NCBI GenBank assembly: GCA_046153685.1
Contig: JBJXGH010000180.1
Span: 14,604 to 78,603 of the forward strand
DNA from: Alphaproteobacteria bacterium
Lineage (GTDB): Bacteria > Pseudomonadota > Alphaproteobacteria > CADEGL01
Length of the DNA: 64,000 nt
Direction of reading: 5' to 3'
Shown in pieces: positions 541 to 48,774 of the stretch. Position 1 is the stretch's first letter, and the number at the start of each line of letters is the position of its first letter. Both the position numbers and the translations under genes were made by a program. Below the pieces are notes generated by a model. That model made no database searches and was not told the origin of the DNA. It saw only the letters and a program-made list of their open reading frames with translations.

Positions 541-1827
541 CTAACTCCGCCAGGCGCGCACGGCGTTCTGGACTTGCCGCCAATCCTCGGCGCGGGGTGT
601 CATCAAGGACACGAATGCGACGCCGTAGATTTTGCGCGCGCGCCAGGCCGCCGTGGCGGCACCGGCGCTCTGTGCGGCCACGAAGGACCAGGCTGCGCCG
701 CGTATCCCGAAAATCGGGACTAGCGCCGCCAATGCCAGAACGCTCACGACAACGGTCACGGATTCGATGCGCCCGATCGCGAGCGTCCGGTCATAGGCCT
801 TGGCTCCTTGAACCAAGAGTTGTTTCAGGCCATAGGGCACCGCGCCAAGGGCCAGAATCCGCACAACGGGAACGGCGTCGAGGAAAGCTAGACCGTACAA
901 GCTCTCGATGAGCAACGGCGCGAGCAAAGCCAGCGTTACCGCGATGATCGAGACGACGACGGCGGTCACGCGCAGAAAGCGTCCGAAGACCGCGGCGCGC
1001 GCGGCCGCGTCGGTTTCCGCCGCGACACGCGGCAAGGCGACCGCACCCAGCAAGCCGATTACGCCGCTGGCGGCTCCGGCAAGGCTGGCGCCGACGACAT
1101 AAAAGCCGAAACTGGCTTCGCTTTCCCATTGCGAAATCAACACCTGGTCGAGCCTTTCGCCCATCACCAGCAATGTGCTGCCGCCCGCGATGGGCAGGCC
1201 ATAGGCGAGGAAACGGCGCATAAGTGCGCGATCAGGCCGACAGCCGAACCAGCCCTCGCGCCCGACCAGCGCGGCCAACAGGCAATAGGTGAGCACGGCG
1301 CCGACCAGAGAGGCCAAGGCGAGAAACTCGACGGAAACCGCGCCGAACGCCCAGACGGCCAAGACGCAACCGAGATACAACAGAGCCGCGAAGACCCGCA
1401 TGGCGTTCCAGATCACGAAGCGCTGGCTGCCCTGAAACATCCCATTGGCGAATGTGGCGAGCATGATCGTCGGCACGATCAGGACGTAGAGATAACTCGT
1501 CTCGACGACTTCCGCGCGGAAATGGCCGTTGAAGAGCCAAACGAGAATCCCCGCCAGGGTCATCAACGGCAAGGAAATCGCAAGGCCGAGCGCTTGACCG
1601 GTGGCGAAGATTCTTGGCATCGGCGCGCCGCGCGCCGCCGCCGCTTGCACGATGGCATCGACCACGAGCGCGCCGCCAAGCGAGGCGAGAAGCTGCGGCC
1701 ATAACAAAATTGCGGCCAACTCGCCGCGCCCCACGGGCCCCAGCAGGCGCGCGGCCAGAATTCCCGTGATCAGGTTCGCGGCGGCGAGCAGCACGAAAGC
1801 TATGGCGGAAACAGCCAAATTTTTCAT
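541..1827 (-). CDS. Wzx-like polysaccharide/O-antigen flippase (MOP superfamily membrane protein)
   Basis: About 12 predicted TM helices starting MKNLAVSAIAFVLLAAANLITGILAARLLGP (polysaccharide biosynthesis protein family). Start re-anchored to ATG 1827, whose ATGA overlaps the upstream GT9 stop. Confidence 0.75.
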   Translation of the reverse strand: MKNLAVSAIAFVLLAAANLITGILAARLLGPVGRGELAAILLWPQLLASLGGALVVDAIVQAAAARGAPMPRIFATGQALGLAISLPLMTLAGILVWLFNGHFRAEVVETSYLYVLIVPTIMLATFANGMFQGSQRFVIWNAMRVFAALLYLGCVLAVWAFGAVSVEFLALASLVGAVLTYCLLAALVGREGWFGCRPDRALMRRFLAYGLPIAGGSTLLVMGERLDQVLISQWESEASFGFYVVGASLAGAASGVIGLLGAVALPRVAAETDAAARAAVFGRFLRVTAVVVSIIAVTLALLAPLLIESLYGLAFLDAVPVVRILALGAVPYGLKQLLVQGAKAYDRTLAIGRIESVTVVVSVLALAALVPIFGIRGAAWSFVAAQSAGAATAAWRARKIYGVAFVSLMTPRAEDWRQVQNAVRAWRS

Positions 1828-2900
1828 TGTGTCCGACCTGCCTCGGAACGCTCGACCGTGTCTAGGCGCGCGCGCGCGGCGGCGATCACGCCGTCGGGCG
1901 AAATGCCCTTCAAACATTCCTTGTCGCGCTCGACGCATACCGAGAGCTCGCATCCGAAACAATCGGTCTTGTTGTAGAACACCACATGGCCCGCGCCGTG
2001 CGGGAACCAGACTCCCGGCTTGTTGCGCGCGCTGAAAACGGCGACGGTCGGCGTGCCGACCGCGGCCGCGAGGTGCATGGGTCCGCTGTCATGGCCGAGA
2101 TATAACTTCGCGCCCTCGCGCACGAGAGCGCTCACTCTGGGTCTGGTAACGCCGGTGAGGTCGAGCACCGGCCCCGGCCAGGAGGACGCGACGGCGCGCG
2201 CGCGTTCGCCTTCGTCCGCCGAACCGATCAAAGCCAATCCCCAGCCTGGGCGCGCCAGGCCTCGAATGGTGCGAGTCCAATTCTCCGCGCCCCAGTCCTT
2301 GGCGTCGATCTTGGTCCCCACGCCGATCGCGAGATAACGCCCGGCTCCTGGCCAGGAGCCGAGCGCGCGGCAGGCGTCCGCCCGTTCCTCGCCATTGAAG
2401 CGCAAATCCCAGTTCTCGCGCCGGTCGAGGGCCGCATCGCCCAAAGGCGCCAGACAGCGCGCCAAACGCGCGGTTTCGCTTTCCCAACGCCCCTCCTTGG
2501 GCAGAAAGCGCGGTTCCGCCAAATCCTCGCTGGTGGGCGCGCCGATGATTTTCGGAATGGCGCAAGCGCGGAAGAAGGCGATATCGCGCCACGTAGCCGC
2601 ACGCCCGCGCGCCTCCGTCAGATAGACGAGCGCGGCGGGCGCGAAGGCGCGGATTTCGCGGCGCAGAGCGTAGAGCGCCGCGGCGCCGCGCGTGCCTTGG
2701 GGGTATCGGATATGGCCGTGGACAAGACCGCTCGCGCCTAGCACGTCCAAGACCGGCGTGGCTTTGGCCGCAACCGGAACATTGGTCAGAACGCGGCGCT
2801 CGGCATCGGGAAAGGCGCGGGCGACAAGATGAAAGCACGGCAGCGATACAACGGTATCGCCGAGGCTACCCATGCGGAAGATGAGGATACGCCGGACCAT
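1824..2900 (-). CDS. Glycosyltransferase family 9 (ADP-heptose:LPS heptosyltransferase-like)
   Basis: MVRRILIFRMGSLGDTVVSLP N-terminus and a C-terminal GHDSGPMHLAAAVGTPTVAVF motif are typical of RfaF/RfaC-type heptosyltransferases. Confidence 0.8.
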   Translation of the reverse strand: MVRRILIFRMGSLGDTVVSLPCFHLVARAFPDAERRVLTNVPVAAKATPVLDVLGASGLVHGHIRYPQGTRGAAALYALRREIRAFAPAALVYLTEARGRAATWRDIAFFRACAIPKIIGAPTSEDLAEPRFLPKEGRWESETARLARCLAPLGDAALDRRENWDLRFNGEERADACRALGSWPGAGRYLAIGVGTKIDAKDWGAENWTRTIRGLARPGWGLALIGSADEGERARAVASSWPGPVLDLTGVTRPRVSALVREGAKLYLGHDSGPMHLAAAVGTPTVAVFSARNKPGVWFPHGAGHVVFYNKTDCFGCELSVCVERDKECLKGISPDGVIAAARARLDTVERSEAGRTQ

Positions 2901-2907
2901 GGCGGGG

Positions 2908-4686
2908 TCAGACGCCGAACGAGCGGTGAACCAGCCGCGCCCAGCCGCGCAAGCCCCGCTCGCCGGAAAAATCTCCGCCCTCGCCCGCGAGCCACTCGCG
3001 CACCGGCGCCACGAAACCAGTTTTTTTCCTGCCGGCGATCTCGGCGGGAAGGGGGCGCGGCAAGGCCTCGATCATCTGCTTCTTACCGGGCGGATGGCGT
3101 CCCGCGATGGCGGGCGCCAAGCCCCAAAGCAGATGGGTGTCCACGAAGGGCACGCGAATCTCGACGCCGTGCGCCATCCCCGCCCAATCCGCATCGCGCA
3201 GCAAGCGGTCGCGCATGTACATGGCGAGCTCAAGCGCCGTGACCTTCTGCCGCGCGCGCGGCAGCGGCGATTCGATCTCCTTCAGCCGCATGATCGGATC
3301 CAGCGCCTTCCAGCCCTCGCGCACCAGATCGGGGTCGAGCAGGTCCGGCAATTCCCACGGCATGAACAATCCACGGCGCAACAGATAAGCGCCCGCATAG
3401 CTGCCGCCGTATTCGAGCAATCCGGCATATTTGGGCGAACTCATGTGGCGGAGTAAGGGCGCGCTCATGGCGCGAAAGCCGTGACCCAAAGCGGGGCAGG
3501 CGGCGATGGGGCGCAACCGGCGAACCGCCTTGGGGATTTGCGTGAAGCTCGGATAACCCGCGAACAGCTCGTCGCCGCCCAAGCCCGACAAGGCGACTTT
3601 GAGTCCGGCTTGCCTCGCCGCGCGCGCGACGAAATAGACGTTCACGCCATCGGTCGTAGGCTGATCCATGGCGGCAAACAGCGCGTCGCGCGCGGCCGCG
3701 AAATCCTGGCGCGCGATATGCGCTTCGTGATGCCGGGCGCCGAAGGCGCGCGCGACGCGTGCGGCCAGGGGCGCCTCGTCCGCGGGCGTGCCGCGGAATG
3801 CGTCGAAGCCCAGCGTCACGGTGCGCAAATCCGCGCCGCGTTCCTCGGCGGCAAGCGATGTCAGCGCGCCCGAATCGAGGCCGGCGGAAAGAAACACCCC
3901 GACCGGCGTGTCGGCGACGAAATGATGTTTCACGCTATCGGCCAGAATTGCGCCTAGGCGTTCGCGGTCGAGAGGCGCTGCCGGGCGGTCGAGCGTAGCG
4001 GTCAGGTCGAAGAAGGCGCGCGGCGTCCCGACGCCGTTCGAATCCGCCCACATTGTATGGCCCGCCGGCAGGGCCGCGATATCGCGGTGGAGCGTGTGCG
4101 GATCGGGCACGTGGCCCCACAGAAAGAATCCCACATGGCCCGCGGCCGAGGCGCCGTTGCCCGCGCGCCCGCCCGCGCGCAGCGCCTTCACCTGCGAGGC
4201 AACGCGCAGCGTCGCGCCGTCATCGGAATAATACAGCGGCTTGATCCCGAAGGGATCGCGCGCGAGCAACATGCCGCGCCGGCGCGCGTCCCAAATAGCG
4301 AAGGCGTACATGCCGCGCAGATGGCGCACGCAATCGGCGCCGTCGCGCTCGTACAGATGCAGCAGAACCTCGGTATCCGACTGGGTGACCAGAACGCGGC
4401 CTTGCGCTGCGAGCTCCGCGCGCAAGGCACGGAAATTATAAATCTCGCCATTGAAGGTGATTACGGCAGCGCCGTTCGCCAGGGCCATGGGCTGATGGCC
4501 ACCCAGCGACAGGTCGATGATCGCGAGACGGCGGTGACCGAACGCGACGCGGCCGTCCCCGGACGTCCAGATGCCGCGATCATCCGGTCCGCGCACGGCC
4601 ATGGCGTCGGTAATCCGGTCGAGCTCTCGCCCATCCACCGGACCCGCCGCGCCGCCATGGGCGAATAGGGCGGCGATCCCGCACAT
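2908..4686 (-). CDS. asnB: Asparagine synthase (glutamine-hydrolysing), AsnB/WbpS-like amidotransferase
   Basis: N-terminal nucleophile MCGIAALF (class II glutamine amidotransferase). The ...SGGLDS... PP-loop-type ATP-binding motif of the synthase domain follows. Start re-anchored to the internal MCGIA (TAATG overlap with the upstream gene). Confidence 0.85.
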   Translation of the reverse strand: MCGIAALFAHGGAAGPVDGRELDRITDAMAVRGPDDRGIWTSGDGRVAFGHRRLAIIDLSLGGHQPMALANGAAVITFNGEIYNFRALRAELAAQGRVLVTQSDTEVLLHLYERDGADCVRHLRGMYAFAIWDARRRGMLLARDPFGIKPLYYSDDGATLRVASQVKALRAGGRAGNGASAAGHVGFFLWGHVPDPHTLHRDIAALPAGHTMWADSNGVGTPRAFFDLTATLDRPAAPLDRERLGAILADSVKHHFVADTPVGVFLSAGLDSGALTSLAAEERGADLRTVTLGFDAFRGTPADEAPLAARVARAFGARHHEAHIARQDFAAARDALFAAMDQPTTDGVNVYFVARAARQAGLKVALSGLGGDELFAGYPSFTQIPKAVRRLRPIAACPALGHGFRAMSAPLLRHMSSPKYAGLLEYGGSYAGAYLLRRGLFMPWELPDLLDPDLVREGWKALDPIMRLKEIESPLPRARQKVTALELAMYMRDRLLRDADWAGMAHGVEIRVPFVDTHLLWGLAPAIAGRHPPGKKQMIEALPRPLPAEIAGRKKTGFVAPVREWLAGEGGDFSGERGLRGWARLVHRSFGV

Positions 4687-42589: not shown

Positions 42590-43059
42590 GGTGGGCGGTT
42601 CCTTTTCGCCTGATGAAGGTCCGGGCTCCCCGAGGGAGGGCCAGGCTGGGTTCGGATCATGCCACCCGCTTCAACTGGACGGCTGGAAAATCGATCGGAA
42701 CGTCCAGTGCCGTGAAATCGCGCCCAATCGTGACCCCGCCCGCGAAGCCATATAACGCATTGCATTGATTGCAGGATAGTCGAATTCGGTGAAGTCGCGT
42801 TTCGCGTCCAACCGCGACGCCTCCCAGCCACTCGATCCGATTGTTCCATCAACGAATTGGCGCCATCTGGTGGTGGGATCACGATTGGGCGCGATTTTAT
42901 ACCTTGTCGATCCGCTTCAATGTGGCCGACGCCGCGCGCCTCGGATGCTTCGACCGGTCCGTCGGCGTAGGGCCAGTTCATCCTACGTCGTCAGCTGCGC
43001 GAACCAAACACCGCGATCACTACGCGGGTCGTCCGTATTTCACAACGGTGTCGCCGTGC

Positions 43060-44191: not shown

Positions 44192-44580
44192 CTGATCCGG
44201 CGCCCGAATCGACGTGACCGAAGCGGCGTATTGTCGCCGGCGCCGGGAGTATGGCGCGCTAAAGGTTGCGCGGGCGTCGCGGATGAAGGTGCTGGCGGAA
44301 AAAACTCGCGGCTTCACAAGTCGGTATCGAACTTGACGCTGGGCGCACCAATCCTGAAATGAAGTGATTGACGAAAAGTTCAAAACTCCTCGCGGCGCCG
44401 TGCGTGGCGTATGATCGGCAGGCACCGTTCGACCCAGCGCAATCCCGCCCGGCCACGATTCGGCTAGCAACGCTTGTACGAGGTATTGAAGAAGCTCTTC
44501 GTCGTTCTCCAAGTATTGGTCACGGATTGCTCGCCGAAATACGGTGCCGCTGCTTGCGTTCTCGGAACATAAAACCACCA

Positions 44581-44680
44581 TGCGCTGTCGATGGCGCAAC
44601 AACCAAGTCGAGAATTCGCATCAGTTGACCCGGCGAAGAGAACGCAAGATGCAAGAATTCAAGAGCCCGGGCTCTGACCG
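44581..44680 (+). mobile_element. Possible IS6-family transposase C-terminal fragment
   Basis: Translation RCRWRNNQVENSHQLTRRRERKMQEFKSPGS resembles the conserved IS6-family transposase C-terminal motif (LNNRAENSHQPTRRRE..M..FKS). Low-GC surroundings; no intact transposase present. Confidence 0.35.
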
Positions 44681-44766
44681 ACCCCCACCGAGTGTAAAAT
44701 CGCCACTCAGGGAGTCATTATTGAAAGTGATTTTACAAGGGGGCGTTCCAACGGTAATTTTTCCGC

Positions 44767-45666
44767 ATGAGTTATTGCGTCTTCATGCATCGGGCGGACT
44801 CGATTTACGACGACAGCCCCGCCGAGCGATACCAGTTCCCTAAGCAGTATCTGAGCCGGGCAAACGGCAGCATTGGAGATTGGGTCGTATATCTTGAGCC
44901 TTCACGAATACCTGGCACGCGCGGTTATTTTGCGATCGCGCGGGTGCAGCAGATCATTCCCGATCCCAAAGCTCCCAGCATGTATCTGGCGCTCATTGAG
45001 CCTGGTTCCTATCTCGATTTCGCGCGCCCCGTGCCATTCAATGAAAGGGATGGTCCGATTGAGCGAGGGTTGCTGAACACGCACGGCAATCTTTCGGGGC
45101 GCGTACAAGCAGCAGTGCGCCCAATCTCTCCGCAAGACTTCAACCGGATCATTGAACGCGGAATCGATGATCAGGAACCATTGCTCCCGCGCGTCGCAGA
45201 TTCGGAATCAGTTACGGGCTTCGAAGACGGTCAAACGCCGTATATCCTCGAACAACCCAGAGACAGGGTTCGGTTCCTGACATCGCGCGTTGTGCGCGAT
45301 CGTGTTTTTCGCAAGATTGTCCTTCGCGCCTATGACGAGCGTTGCGCGATTAGTGGCCTGAAGATCGTTAATGGTGGCGGTAGAGCGGAGGTCGATGCCG
45401 CACATATCCAACCAGTGCAGCACAAAGGCCCTGACATCCTCCATAACGGCATCGCCTTGTCGGGTACAGCGCATTGGATGTTTGATCGTGGCCTCATAAG
45501 CCTTTCGGACGATCTTGAGATTCTCATTTCCCGTCAGACCAACGATGTCGCCAGCGTGCAATCTTTCATCAACAAGGGTGGCCGCGCCACGCCGCCGCTA
45601 CGTGTCGCGGATCGGCCGCATCCGCACTTTCTAAAGTGGCACCGCGACAACTGTTTCAAAAGTTGA
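44767..45666 (+). CDS. HNH_2 (COG3440-type) endonuclease with about 190-aa N-terminal domain; candidate modification-dependent (type IV) restriction enzyme
   Basis: C-terminal CAISGLKIVNGGGRAEVDAAHIQPVQHKGPDILHNGIALSGTAHWMFDRGLISL matches the HNH_2 pattern C.I.G...L.AAHI.P....D...NG..L....H..FD.GLI. N-terminal domain of unassigned family. Lies in the lower-GC island. Confidence 0.7.
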   Translation: MSYCVFMHRADSIYDDSPAERYQFPKQYLSRANGSIGDWVVYLEPSRIPGTRGYFAIARVQQIIPDPKAPSMYLALIEPGSYLDFARPVPFNERDGPIERGLLNTHGNLSGRVQAAVRPISPQDFNRIIERGIDDQEPLLPRVADSESVTGFEDGQTPYILEQPRDRVRFLTSRVVRDRVFRKIVLRAYDERCAISGLKIVNGGGRAEVDAAHIQPVQHKGPDILHNGIALSGTAHWMFDRGLISLSDDLEILISRQTNDVASVQSFINKGGRATPPLRVADRPHPHFLKWHRDNCFKS

Positions 45667-45857
45667 GTCTTCGGGAGAACGCCCGGCTCAAACGGCTGGA
45701 GGCAGATCTCTCGCTCGAGAAGCAGGCGCTCAAGGATATTGCCTCGGGAAGCTTGAAAGGCCCGAACGGCGTTGGCGGGCGGCGGATGAATTCGGCCTTG
45801 TAGATGCCGCCGATCATTCATGGGCGCGCCGCCGCTCTTCGTCTGACTAATTGGCAT

Positions 45858-46424
45858 TCAGATGTTGCGGCTATCGTAGGCCCAGTGCAGCAAGGCCTGT
45901 CGCTGGCGCGGTCTGCAAAAGGGATCGCCTGGTTCGCAGTTCTGTTTGATCTGCGCGATGTGTCGCCGGAACGCCTTCCAGCGCTTGATCTGGCGCTTGT
46001 CTTCCTGGGGCAGCCGCCGCCCCATGAAATAACGGCAGTACCACTGGAACCAGCCGCGCGGATCGTCGTCGTGAAGCCAACCGTTCCGACGCCACACCGA
46101 GAGAGGCTGGCTCGCATCGACACCGAAATAGTTGAGGGCGTCATTCCTGCCGGACAGCGACAGCTTGGCGTGCGTGAACCAGCTCGGGGGAAATTCCCTT
46201 CGGCAGTCAGTCAGGTACTTGCCGCCGAAAACACCGAGCGTCAGCATGTCCTTGGGTGTGAGTTCAGGGCGGAATTCCGGGTCGAAATTGCGCCCGAGCG
46301 GTTCCGTCAGGATGTAACGGTATCCCCGCTGCATCGTGTCGTTGACGATCACGCGCCTGACTCGATATCGCTTGGAGCTTTCCGCTCGATCCTGCGAATT
46401 CGATCTATCCATGACCGCGAACAC
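45858..46424 (-). CDS. Hypothetical protein (188 aa, basic, Trp/Arg-rich)
   Basis: Complete ORF convergent with the HNH gene; ...TLGVFGGKYLTD...WFQWYCRYFMGRRLPQEDKRQIKRWKAFRRHI. No family recognised by eye. Confidence 0.4.
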   Translation of the reverse strand: MFAVMDRSNSQDRAESSKRYRVRRVIVNDTMQRGYRYILTEPLGRNFDPEFRPELTPKDMLTLGVFGGKYLTDCRREFPPSWFTHAKLSLSGRNDALNYFGVDASQPLSVWRRNGWLHDDDPRGWFQWYCRYFMGRRLPQEDKRQIKRWKAFRRHIAQIKQNCEPGDPFCRPRQRQALLHWAYDSRNI

Positions 46425-46534
46425 TCGTTGCGTTGCGACTTGATCTGACGCGCATCGCGAGCCGGATAACGGGGCTCATTCTCAGACCCGTTTCCCGCCC
46501 AGGCGGTAAACCCGTGCCGCATCCAGCCGGTACG

Positions 46535-46594
46535 CCATGGCCCCCGTTGCCATGGTCCCCGTTGCCATGGTCCCCGTTGCCATGGTCCCCGTTG
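46535..46594. repeat. Perfect tandem repeat, 4 copies of a 15-bp unit (CCATGGTCCCCGTTG)
   Basis: ccatggcccccgttg ccatggtccccgttg x3, read directly. It encodes (QRGPW)4 in the minus frame of a doubtful 158-aa ORF. Confidence 0.7.
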
Positions 46595-46712
46595 AATGAG
46601 CTTGGCCGCTAGGATGCCGGATTCGAGCGTCTTACCCAAGCCAGTTGGACCCGCAATCAAAATACGCCGCCTTGGCTGCCTGAGCGCATGCGGTGCCGGG
46701 CCCAACCGGCGC

Positions 46713-46900
46713 TGACCTGCGCCCGCAGGACTCCTCCGGATTTGAGTAGAGTCCGTCGAGCAGGGAAAAGGGACGATGAAGGCGGGCCGGTTTGCGAAAG
46801 AGCACATCATCGCGATCTTTCGCAAGTAAGAGGCGGGAGCGAATGCGGCGGATGTGTCCGGTCTGCAGGGGATCAGCGGGGCGGCGTTTGATCCGAGCCT
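46713..46900 (+). mobile_element. IS3-family (IS407-group-like) left end with frameshifted orfA remnant
   Basis: TGACCTGCGCCC... terminal-IR-like start at 46713. ATG 46776 encodes MKAGRFAKEHIIAIFRK* then a shifted-frame EAGANAADVSGLQGISGAAFDPS (compare IS407-group OrfA ...EEQIIGFLKQAEAGMAVKDLCRKHGFSDATFY). It abuts a truncated ABC-ATPase gene. Confidence 0.45.
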
Positions 46901-47331: not shown

Positions 47332-48482
47332 TCAGTTGAGGCCGGAGAGCACCTTGAGTCCCCAACTGCCGCCAGCCGTCAGGATCACCACGAGCCAAGG
47401 CGGAATCTTCCGAAAAACCAAAAGCGCGAACGCGGCCAGCGCGAGGGCAAAATCGCCGGGCGAGAGAATGCCGCTCGTCCAAACCGGATTGTATAGCGCG
47501 GCGAGCAGAATCCCGACCACGGCGGCATTGATGCCGAGCAACGCCTTCTGGACGAGACGCGATTGGCGCACGGTGTCCCAGAATGGCAGCGCCCCCACGA
47601 TCAGTAAGAAGGACGGCGCGTAAATCGCGGTCAGACAGATCAAAGCGCCGAGCCATCCATTCGGCGCCGGTCCCATCACGGTGCCGAGATAGGCCGCGAA
47701 GGTGAACAACGGGCCCGGAACGGCCTGCGCCGCGCCGTAGCCGGCGAGAAAGGCGTCGTTCGACACCCATCCAGGCGGCACGACCGCGGACTGAAGCAGA
47801 GGCAGCACGACATGGCCGCCGCCGAAGACCAGGGCGCCCGAGCGGTAGAAGTTGTCGATGAGCGCCAGAGTCTGCGAGGGATAGGCGGAAGCGAGTATCG
47901 GCCGGCCGATCAGCAGCGCGAAGTACAGCGCCAGCGCCGTAAGGGCAACGCACTTACCGACTTCAATGCCCAGCGTGACCTGGCGCGAATTCATTTCGGC
48001 GCGCAGAAATGCGATCCCCATCAACCCGCCGGCGATGATGACGGCGATCTGGGCGAACGGCGTCGGCGCGGCGAGCACCGCGCCCGCGCCATTCCCCAGA
48101 CCGCCAGGGCAACGACCGCGACAGCGACCACCTTCAGGCCGTGCAGCACGGCGCCGGGAATCGCGTCGTGAAAAGCCGCCATGCCGTAGCCGAAGGCCAG
48201 GAGGGAGAGCGCCTATGGCATGGAGAAGGCGAACCAGGCGGCGAACGCTCCCGGCAGCCCCGCCTTGGCAAGCCCGATTCCGATCCCGACCTGGCTCGAT
48301 GCCGGCCCGGGAAGGAACTGGCACAACGCGACCAAGTCGGAGTAAGCGCGACCGTCGATCCAGCGGCGGCGCTTCACGAAGGCGTCGCGAAAATATCCGA
48401 GATGTGCGACCGGCCCGCCGAACGAGGTGAAGCCGAGCTGGAGGAAGGCGAGGAAGACGGCCGCGACCGGCTCGCGCTGCAT
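47332..48482 (-). pseudogene. chrA: Chromate transporter ChrA, disrupted (in-frame stop plus frameshift)
   Basis: N-terminal half ...FLAFLQLGFTSFGGPVAHLGYFRDAFVKRRRWIDGRAYSDLVALCQFLPGPASSQVGIGIGL... ends at an in-frame TAG (48213-48215), followed directly by ChrA-like ALSLLAFGYGMAAFHDAIPGAV... A frame change near 48060 leads into the C-terminal half. Confidence 0.6.
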
Positions 48483-48774
48483 CTGCCGATCCGGCTTGGC
48501 GGCCTCGTCCGCATCGCGCATCGGACTTGGCCCCACCCGATTTATCGATTCATGATTCGAACCTCGACCTTTCGCGCGGCGGGGTCAAGCGCGGCGAAAC
48601 CGGTGCGGCGCCTCCCGCCGTCCATAACGGTTCATTTTCTCGACGCAAGCGACGAAGCTCGACCGCGTAACCATGTCGGCGCCGCGCGCGCCGCAACACG
48701 GAAGGCCAGATCCGAATTGCGCGCCAAGCGCTCCAATCCCCCGGCCTGTGCGATGGCTCTTCAAGCCTTCCGCC

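Follow-up and report, generated by a model that had tools for sequence, protein, structure and literature searches.

A 299-aa open reading frame starting with ATG and lying within a 64-kb stretch of alphaproteobacterial DNA (the window) encodes an HNH_2-type nuclease joined to an N-terminal half of unrecognized sequence, and raises the question of what this half senses and what the nuclease is for. The initial annotation regarded the protein as a candidate type IV (modification-dependent) restriction enzyme with a possible new specificity module. In databases, thousands of proteins of this kind carry no label beyond "HNH endonuclease" or "putative restriction endonuclease" and no annotation of their N-terminal half. 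The reading reached here, held at a probability of about 0.6, is that a solitary gene encodes, on one polypeptide chain, a PUA-HNH restriction endonuclease of type IV, with a presumed dependence on modified DNA and a presumed role in defence. It is best read as a member of a new, uncharacterised clade within the known PUA(EVE)-HNH type IV enzymes.

The gene and its nuclease half

The N-terminus of the encoded protein (MSYCVFMHR...) coincides in the alignment with the start of its homologues, whose full-length members are 291–300 aa long and 69–83% identical. At the 159 positions conserved in at least 90% of the family, the window copy carries five substitutions, all of them conservative, compared with a family median of four, and every residue invariant in an alignment of 56 sequences is kept. 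The gene is intact, as judged by its family length, its N-terminus, its invariant residues and the lack of surplus substitutions (Table 1). Around the gene, a signal scan revealed nothing resembling a sigma-70 promoter, and terminator-like hairpins were located only inside or upstream of the ORF, with none at its end.

Table 1. Positions of the gene and of its protein features within the window
Feature	Coordinates	Strand	Basis
EVE-like-HNH protein, complete ORF, 299 aa + stop	44767..45666	+	ORF list, homologues
aa 1-135, beta-rich EVE-like (PUA superfamily) domain, putative modified-base sensor	44767..45171	+	
aa 136-165, variable inter-domain linker, probably disordered	45172..45261	+	pLDDT 26-41, low identity, indels
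aa 166-254, linker helix + HNH (beta-beta-alpha-Me) core	45262..45528	+	Pfam, phmmer, hhalign
Pfam HNH_2 match, aa 193-246	45343-45504	+	Pfam
Catalytic or metal-binding H213	45403-45405	+	invariant; aligned to VcaM4I H224
Catalytic or metal-binding N227	45445-45447	+	invariant in 56 sequences
Catalytic or metal-binding H236	45472-45474	+	invariant in 56 sequences
Catalytic or metal-binding D240	45484-45486	+	invariant; aligned to VcaM4I D254
aa 255-299, conserved C-terminal tail (…RPHPHFLKWHRDNCFKS)	45529..45663	+	hhalign, NCBIfam NF045808

The description of the protein in the initial annotation as an intact HNH_2 nuclease was upheld, with the Pfam HNH_2 model (PF13391) scoring 35.6 bits (E = 8.5e-9; cutoff 21 bits), the catalytic residues present and the length that of the family. 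The PADLOC model 'HNH' (PDLC04132) also matched, over aa 166–298. The HNH_2 motif had been assigned to the C-terminal 60 aa; the motif itself is as described, but it occupies aa 193–254, ahead of a conserved tail of 45 aa. The possibility that catalytic positions might prove to be substituted on proper alignment was also addressed, and no substitution was found, with H213, N227, H236 and D240 present and invariant among the 56 homologues.

A phmmer search against all PDB sequences returned two matches only, the SRA-HNH enzyme TagI (6ghs), which was the best match (E = 9.7e-6, aa 164–254), and the EVE-HNH enzyme VcaM4I (6yex; E = 5.7e-5). The VcaM4I group was assembled by a search with the VcaM4I segment from the 6yex phmmer alignment, and includes a protein 88% identical to this segment with its residue numbering preserved (P0390); the catalytic residues of VcaM4I were taken from PMC7897488. 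Alignment of the full-length family profile to this group with hhalign gave a probability of 98.2% (E = 4e-14) for residues 2–299 against 8–308, with confident columns extending from the linker helix (~aa 165) across the HNH core to a common C-terminal tail. In this alignment H213 is paired with the catalytic H224 of VcaM4I and D240 with D254, and the position of VcaM4I D250 is taken by the canonical histidine, H236. The tail aligns with VcaM4I-group residues ~265–308 at high per-column confidence, and is common to the window protein, the VcaM4I group and the phosphorothioated-DNA (PT-DNA) restriction family. The NCBIfam model of the latter (NF045808, phosphorothioated-DNA-binding restriction endonuclease) matched only aa 168–298, corresponding to model positions 152–284 alone and reaching the C-terminal end of the protein, with 100.4 bits against a cutoff of 180. 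Taken at the level of sequence, the alignments indicate that the linker helix, HNH core and tail are homologous to those of VcaM4I, and the catalytic half to that of TagI as well.

The N-terminal domain, the linker and the target base

The N-terminal domain had been described as unassigned, and for its sequence this is correct. No model in Pfam, NCBIfam, PADLOC or PHROGs matched aa 1–165, and a family profile of the domain matched no PDB sequence at E ≤ 10. An exhaustive HMMER search with aa 1–165 yielded 719 representative clusters. The full-length clusters among the 150 listed were mostly ~295–313 aa, indicating the same two-domain architecture, and a more distant member, P0246, with ~41% identity in the N-terminal domain, led to a second large clade. 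A first AlphaFold model of the full-length protein was calculated from a shallow alignment in which all sequences exceeded 69% identity. It gave a pLDDT of 56.5, with a β-rich N-terminal part of moderate confidence and an HNH half of low confidence, and was not used in fold searching. A domain-only model from an alignment of both clades reached a pLDDT of 84.6 for the N-terminal domain. The domain spans ~135 aa and is followed by a variable linker of ~30 aa, instead of the ~190 aa allotted to it at first. In the full-length model the linker has a pLDDT of 26–41, and it contains indels in two family alignments.

The predicted structure of the N-terminal domain matches EVE-type domains of the PUA superfamily. 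EVE domains were the top structural neighbours in the fold search. Among the readers of restriction enzymes, the N-terminal domain of Staphylothermus McrB reached 9.9 and the VcaM4I chain 9.6; the values were ~8.3–9.3 for YTH, 8.8 for ASCH and only 4.1–4.7 for SRA domains. Foldseek returned the same families, with TM-scores of 0.54–0.63 for the EVE entries. Stand-alone EVE proteins and THYN1 share 8–15% identity with the window domain. On the basis of the model, the domain is a sequence-divergent EVE-like domain that belongs to the EVE/YTH/ASCH branch of the PUA superfamily, lies closest to EVE and has a fold that is not new. The earlier suggestions that it is unlike known readers and might be a new specificity module are contradicted by the structure prediction and by the two independent fold searches; the concern that it might turn out not to be a DNA-binding module was likewise not borne out, the predicted fold being that of an EVE-like reader.

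Pfam EVE (PF01878; cutoff 23 bits) did not match the window protein at E ≤ 1 and grazed four of 24 divergent relatives at 13–14 bits, these sub-threshold matches being in the correct register (aa 31–93 against model positions 38–100). That the threshold was missed says little, because the VcaM4I-group proteins are themselves annotated in Pfam only as HNH_2, with no EVE. The profile of the N-terminal domain showed no significant similarity to the N-terminal domain of the VcaM4I group (hhalign probability 0.2, 13% identity), and given this result and the lack of a PDB sequence match, the sensor is considered a clade separate from the TspA15I/VcaM4I group proper. Residues invariant in the domain throughout the family include Y14, D16, Y22, F24, Y28, Y42, P45, Y54, F55, E99 and R118, a set rich in aromatics and acids, as would be expected of a base-binding pocket. 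In VcaM4I the flipped base is held in a hydrophobic pocket (P24, W82, Y130; also E15 and Q128), with E15 and Q10/T11 at its Watson-Crick edge, and the sole hhalign alignment to this region is of near-zero confidence. Two low-confidence registers pair YDDSP with YMWSP of VcaM4I or, by eye, Y22-x-F24-P25 with Y20-x-W22-x-P24.

Constraint was compared across the three parts of the protein. Identity within the two clades is 73% and 70% for the sensor, 80% and 77% for the nuclease, and 43% and 30% for the linker; between the clades it is 38% for the sensor and 59% for the nuclease. Judged by these values, purifying selection on the sensor almost equals that on the nuclease, and the linker varies freely.

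In Alphaproteobacteria, the genome's own GANTC sites are N6-adenine-methylated by CcrM. Modified cytosine, either 5mC or 5hmC, is by analogy the favoured target base, both because the nearest characterised enzymes read modified cytosine and because CcrM methylation would make a context-free reader of 6mA self-toxic. The characterised enzymes TspA15I, VcaM4I and CmeDI prefer 5hmC or 5mC (PMC7897488).

It is possible, if rather unlikely, that the same architecture and type IV logic serve a sensor that reads something other than 5mC/5hmC, which would constitute a new specificity class. The base read might be N4-methylcytosine, a hypermodified base of phages, or N6-methyladenine outside CcrM sites, for example at Dam GATC. 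The sensor belongs to a sequence family separate from the EVE domain of VcaM4I, which reads 5mC/5hmC, and it has diverged more between the clades than the nuclease has. A PUA-HNH enzyme of a different clade, ScoA3V, shows 6mA-stimulated nicking. Furthermore, two family variants with an extra N-terminal extension match the DpnI_C winged helix, a 6mA sensor, although these matches are weak and below threshold (17 against 23 bits) and found no support among PDB sequences. Set against such a specificity are the self-toxicity expected, on general knowledge, of a context-free 6mA reader, and the identity of the top structural neighbours, EVE domains that include the 5mC/5hmC reader VcaM4I and THYN1, the latter crystallised with 5mC-containing DNA in which the 5mC is in an irrelevant position (PMC7897488). 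If true, this alternative would describe a type IV specificity class tuned to coexist with the CcrM methylome and directed, for example, at incoming gammaproteobacterial or phage DNA, and the consistently non-host codon composition of the gene might reflect selection for low expression of a toxic nuclease. A sensor of 5mC or 5hmC is nevertheless preferred.

Surroundings, spread and the case for an accessory gene

The gene had been placed in a low-GC decayed island, and this was confirmed. GC at 44–46 kb is 0.575–0.58 compared with ~0.65–0.69 elsewhere in the window, and the GC3 of the HNH gene is 0.60 compared with ~0.8 in its neighbours. A fragment of an IS6/IS240-type transposase is located ~100 bp upstream, and a helicase-like fragment and a split chromate-transporter gene are located downstream. 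The patch around the gene is degraded, IS-scarred and of lower GC. The HNH gene is not its only intact accessory gene, as had been claimed, given that a second ORF of 188 aa (45858–46424, minus strand) also looks intact. This ORF was considered as a partner of the HNH gene and rejected, as it never co-occurs with HNH homologues. No DNA methyltransferase was found within ~4 kb of the HNH gene in the window (Pfam, neighbouring ORFs), no tRNA in the 64-kb window and no repeats flanking the gene.

The neighbourhoods of homologues are varied. When all ORFs of 81 loci were clustered, no neighbour family reached more than 14 of these loci once antisense shadow ORFs were set aside. In a Pfam census of the 147 nearest neighbours of ~80 loci, the highest count was eight (guaA, RibD_C), with six for Fic and three each for HipA and PIN, and no DNA methyltransferase family was among the 25 commonest families listed for these neighbours. 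No methyltransferase was found next to the HNH gene in the individually inspected loci either, including two annotated plasmids. The gene is always solitary. For fusions of PUA domains with nucleases, Lutz et al. (2019, PMC6765204) count such occurrence without a methyltransferase in favour of a dependence on modification. With an HNH half homologous to TagI and VcaM4I, a reader-type domain and no neighbouring methyltransferase, the initial proposal of a candidate type IV enzyme was a reasonable one.

The family comprises more than 7,000 sequences, with more than 7,000 matches per clade query, and a species-level genome scan confirmed at least 525 encoding stretches, which places the clade in at least 525 species, essentially all of them alphaproteobacterial. 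The 80 loci kept from the scan are almost all alphaproteobacterial (63–78% identity), and carriers include Methylobacterium, Bradyrhizobium, Mesorhizobium, Sinorhizobium/Ensifer and Rhizobium, as well as Xanthobacter, Ancylobacter, Tistlia, Thalassobaculum and Sphingomonas. The length of the protein is constant at ~300 aa. Plasmids of Sinorhizobium, Rhizobium and Agrobacterium, many of them conjugative, carry 44 full-length copies. A phage origin was rejected, with a full-length homologue in none of 50,697 phage records and only generic PUA-like matches in BFVD. At the DNA level, the window is homologous to the other loci only within the ORF (44755–45673, ~70% identity). Of 89 loci, 63 have a gene with GC more than two points below the locus value, and only four a gene with higher GC. 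Given the plasmid carriage, the low GC and the homology that ends at the ORF, the gene is of accessory character, with the traits of an old, horizontally moving gene of Alphaproteobacteria.

Conservation is one point against a type IV enzyme, since 63–83% identity and a constant length over many genera are more conservative than is typical of arms-race defence genes. The same unusual conservation would suit a nuclease or nickase that acts regardless of modification, or an enzyme of housekeeping or repair, with a PUA-like domain that simply binds DNA or modified RNA. In several genomes the gene has housekeeping genes around it and no mobile element close by, and RecQ is adjacent or near in two contexts, although the Pfam census showed the RecQ association not to be general. 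Among the predicted EVE-HNH and PUA-fusion proteins assayed by Lutz et al. (PMC6765204), several showed activity that was inconclusive or did not depend on modification, and prokaryotic EVE domains are often associated with RNA modification (PMC7641849). Conversely, the distribution is patchy, contexts vary even within genera and there is no conserved neighbour. The plasmid carriage, the foreign composition and the limits of homology are all accessory traits, and the catalytic module recurs in the type IV enzymes TagI, VcaM4I, SprMcrA-like proteins and HhiV4I. A role independent of modification, or in housekeeping, is accordingly judged doubtful, and the type IV reading is retained.

A selfish homing-type HNH endonuclease gene spreading on its own would share the single-gene organisation, the homology that stops at the ORF boundaries, the GC below that of the host and the varied insertion contexts. 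However, no intron, intein or conserved target-gene context is present, and a reader domain joined to an HNH_2/McrA-like module is not of the homing-endonuclease type. Flanking repeats are also lacking, and the inter-locus nucleotide identity of only ~70% gives no sign of recent self-propagation, making this explanation very improbable. Least probable is an N-terminal module unrelated to known modified-base readers, which is in keeping with the failure of every sequence-profile library to assign aa 1–165 but is refuted at the fold level by the EVE-like predicted structure.

Proposed mechanism and comparison with known systems

For the preferred type IV enzyme, the following mechanism is proposed. 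The EVE-like domain (aa 1–135) would scan DNA and presumably flip a modified base into a putative conserved pocket with many aromatic and acidic residues, and binding of the modified base would license the C-terminal HNH ββα-metal nuclease to cut nearby. H213 would act as the general base, and N227, H236 and D240 would stabilise the fold and bind the metal ion. On the model of VcaM4I (PMC7897488), the protein is probably a dimer whose nuclease is probably auto-inhibited by the linker helix until modified DNA binds. A methyltransferase partner would not be needed because the host's own DNA would be free of the target modification.

The EVE-like reader half places the whole clade among the PUA-HNH type IV restriction enzymes, and the literature search found no paper describing a member of the alphaproteobacterial clade. 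Strains of Rhizobium, Agrobacterium, Bradyrhizobium and Methylobacterium can be harder to transform with plasmids derived from E. coli (Dam+/Dcm+) when modified DNA is restricted, and the new sensor sequence family may hold a modification specificity of use in epigenetic mapping. No new principle is involved, and the gene is a fairly ordinary one of the defence type.

Among known systems, the stand-alone EVE proteins (PH1033, 1wmm; Rpa0253, 2gbs; PSPTO5229, 2eve; human THYN1, 5j3e) are single-domain proteins with no nuclease. The SprMcrA/ScoMcrA SBD-HNH enzymes (NF045808) are alike in the HNH core and tail, but a phosphorothioate-sensing enzyme of this type was rejected, as the model scored 100.4 of the required 180 bits over the C-terminal half only and the N-terminal domain is predicted to be a β-rich PUA fold and not a sulfur-binding domain. 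The PUA-wH-HNH enzymes HhiV4I (HHPV4I) and HtuIII, which are 6mA-dependent, also begin with a PUA-superfamily domain, and the HNH half of the HHPV4 enzyme is 32.5% identical to that of the window protein. However, they are 375–496 aa long and contain a winged helix, whereas the window protein has 299 aa, no winged-helix match in Pfam and, between the sensor and the nuclease helix, a poorly conserved linker of ~30 aa instead; membership of this group was rejected. Modification sensing in PUA-wH-HNH enzymes is not performed by the PUA domain (PMC11037411). The SRA-HNH enzymes TagI and ScoA3IV (6ghs) follow the same logic, an N-terminal PUA-superfamily reader with a C-terminal HNH nuclease, but the low SRA values in the fold search exclude the window protein from this group too.

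The closest counterpart is the VcaM4I/TspA15I/CmeDI EVE-HNH group (6yex, 6yjb, 6ykf, 6ymg; Lutz et al. 2019, Pastor et al. 2021), which has the same order of parts, namely an N-terminal EVE-fold sensor, a linker helix, an HNH_2-type nuclease and a conserved C-terminal tail. Its members are of near-equal length (309 aa compared with 299 aa here) and are also solitary, without a methyltransferase. They differ from the window protein in the sequence of the sensor, which hhalign could not relate to the one described here, and at the metal-ligand position, D250 in VcaM4I and the canonical H236 here. They also differ in origin, the characterised enzymes being from Thioalkalivibrio, Vibrio and a compost metagenome (possibly Aeromonas) and the clade of the window protein being alphaproteobacterial.

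Mobile-element traces and apparently decayed genes around the HNH gene

The HNH gene (44767-45666 of the window, plus strand) begins about 100 bp downstream of the end of a short transposase fragment of the IS6/IS240 DDE type, whose match (E = 9e-4) falls under the Pfam threshold. An intact IS6 transposase lies near the HNH homologue carried on an Agrobacterium vitis plasmid (L092). Further upstream in the window, an inverted repeat is located in apparently non-coding DNA and could be either the remnant of a small mobile element or a regulatory hairpin.

On the other side of the gene, the helicase-like P-loop fragment looks like a decayed gene and contains a tandem repeat that translates to four consecutive copies of PWQRG. 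The chromate transporter beyond it is divided between two ORFs, both of which match Pfam Chromate_transp, and is probably a frameshifted pseudogene.

Features in the window and in two loci carrying HNH homologues
Feature	Position	Strand	Details
Inverted repeat, 26 nt	arms 42715-42740 and 42872-42897		92% complementary; 131 nt between arms
IS6/IS240-type DDE transposase fragment	44574-44666	+	within ORF 44544-44843
188-aa ORF	45858-46424	-	intact; GC3 0.76
Helicase-like P-loop fragment	46349-46825	-	weak ResIII/T2SSE matches
Tandem repeat in helicase-like fragment	46534-46594		15-bp unit x 4.1
Chromate transporter in two pieces	47332-48536	-	ORFs of 330 and 107 aa that overlap
RecQ helicase gene	L008, 7078-8802		directly downstream of HNH homologue
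RecQ helicase gene	L005 (Roseibium), 1535-3364		2.6 kb upstream of HNH homologue, opposite strand

Candidate partner genes

The 188-aa ORF had no match in Pfam, NCBIfam, PADLOC or PHROGs. Hypothetical proteins with 60-70% identity to it are encoded on plasmids of Sinorhizobium, Rhizobium and Mesorhizobium, 50 plasmids in all. In no case does it adjoin an HNH homologue, and it was therefore rejected as a partner of the HNH gene. The proximity of RecQ to HNH homologues is probably coincidence, given that RecQ was absent from the 25 commonest families in the 147-neighbour census of these homologues.

Base composition and domain variants of the HNH family

When loci L001-L090 were set beside the window gene at 44767-45666, the GC of the family gene was more than 0.02 below that of its host locus in 63 of 89 loci. 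The median GC3 of the family genes was 0.635, compared with about 0.79 for the host loci. Family copies share only about 70% DNA identity and their homology ends at the ORF ends. The low GC could be due to continual plasmid-borne transfer, or to selection favouring poor codons where the encoded nuclease is toxic.

Two family proteins encoded outside the window, P0163 and P0179, possess an additional N-terminal extension of about 90 aa. The extension weakly matches DpnI_C, at a sub-threshold 17 bits (cutoff 23), and searching PDB sequences did not back up this match. The DpnI_C winged helix is a known 6mA sensor, and P0163 and P0179 may represent a three-domain wH-EVE-HNH variant.
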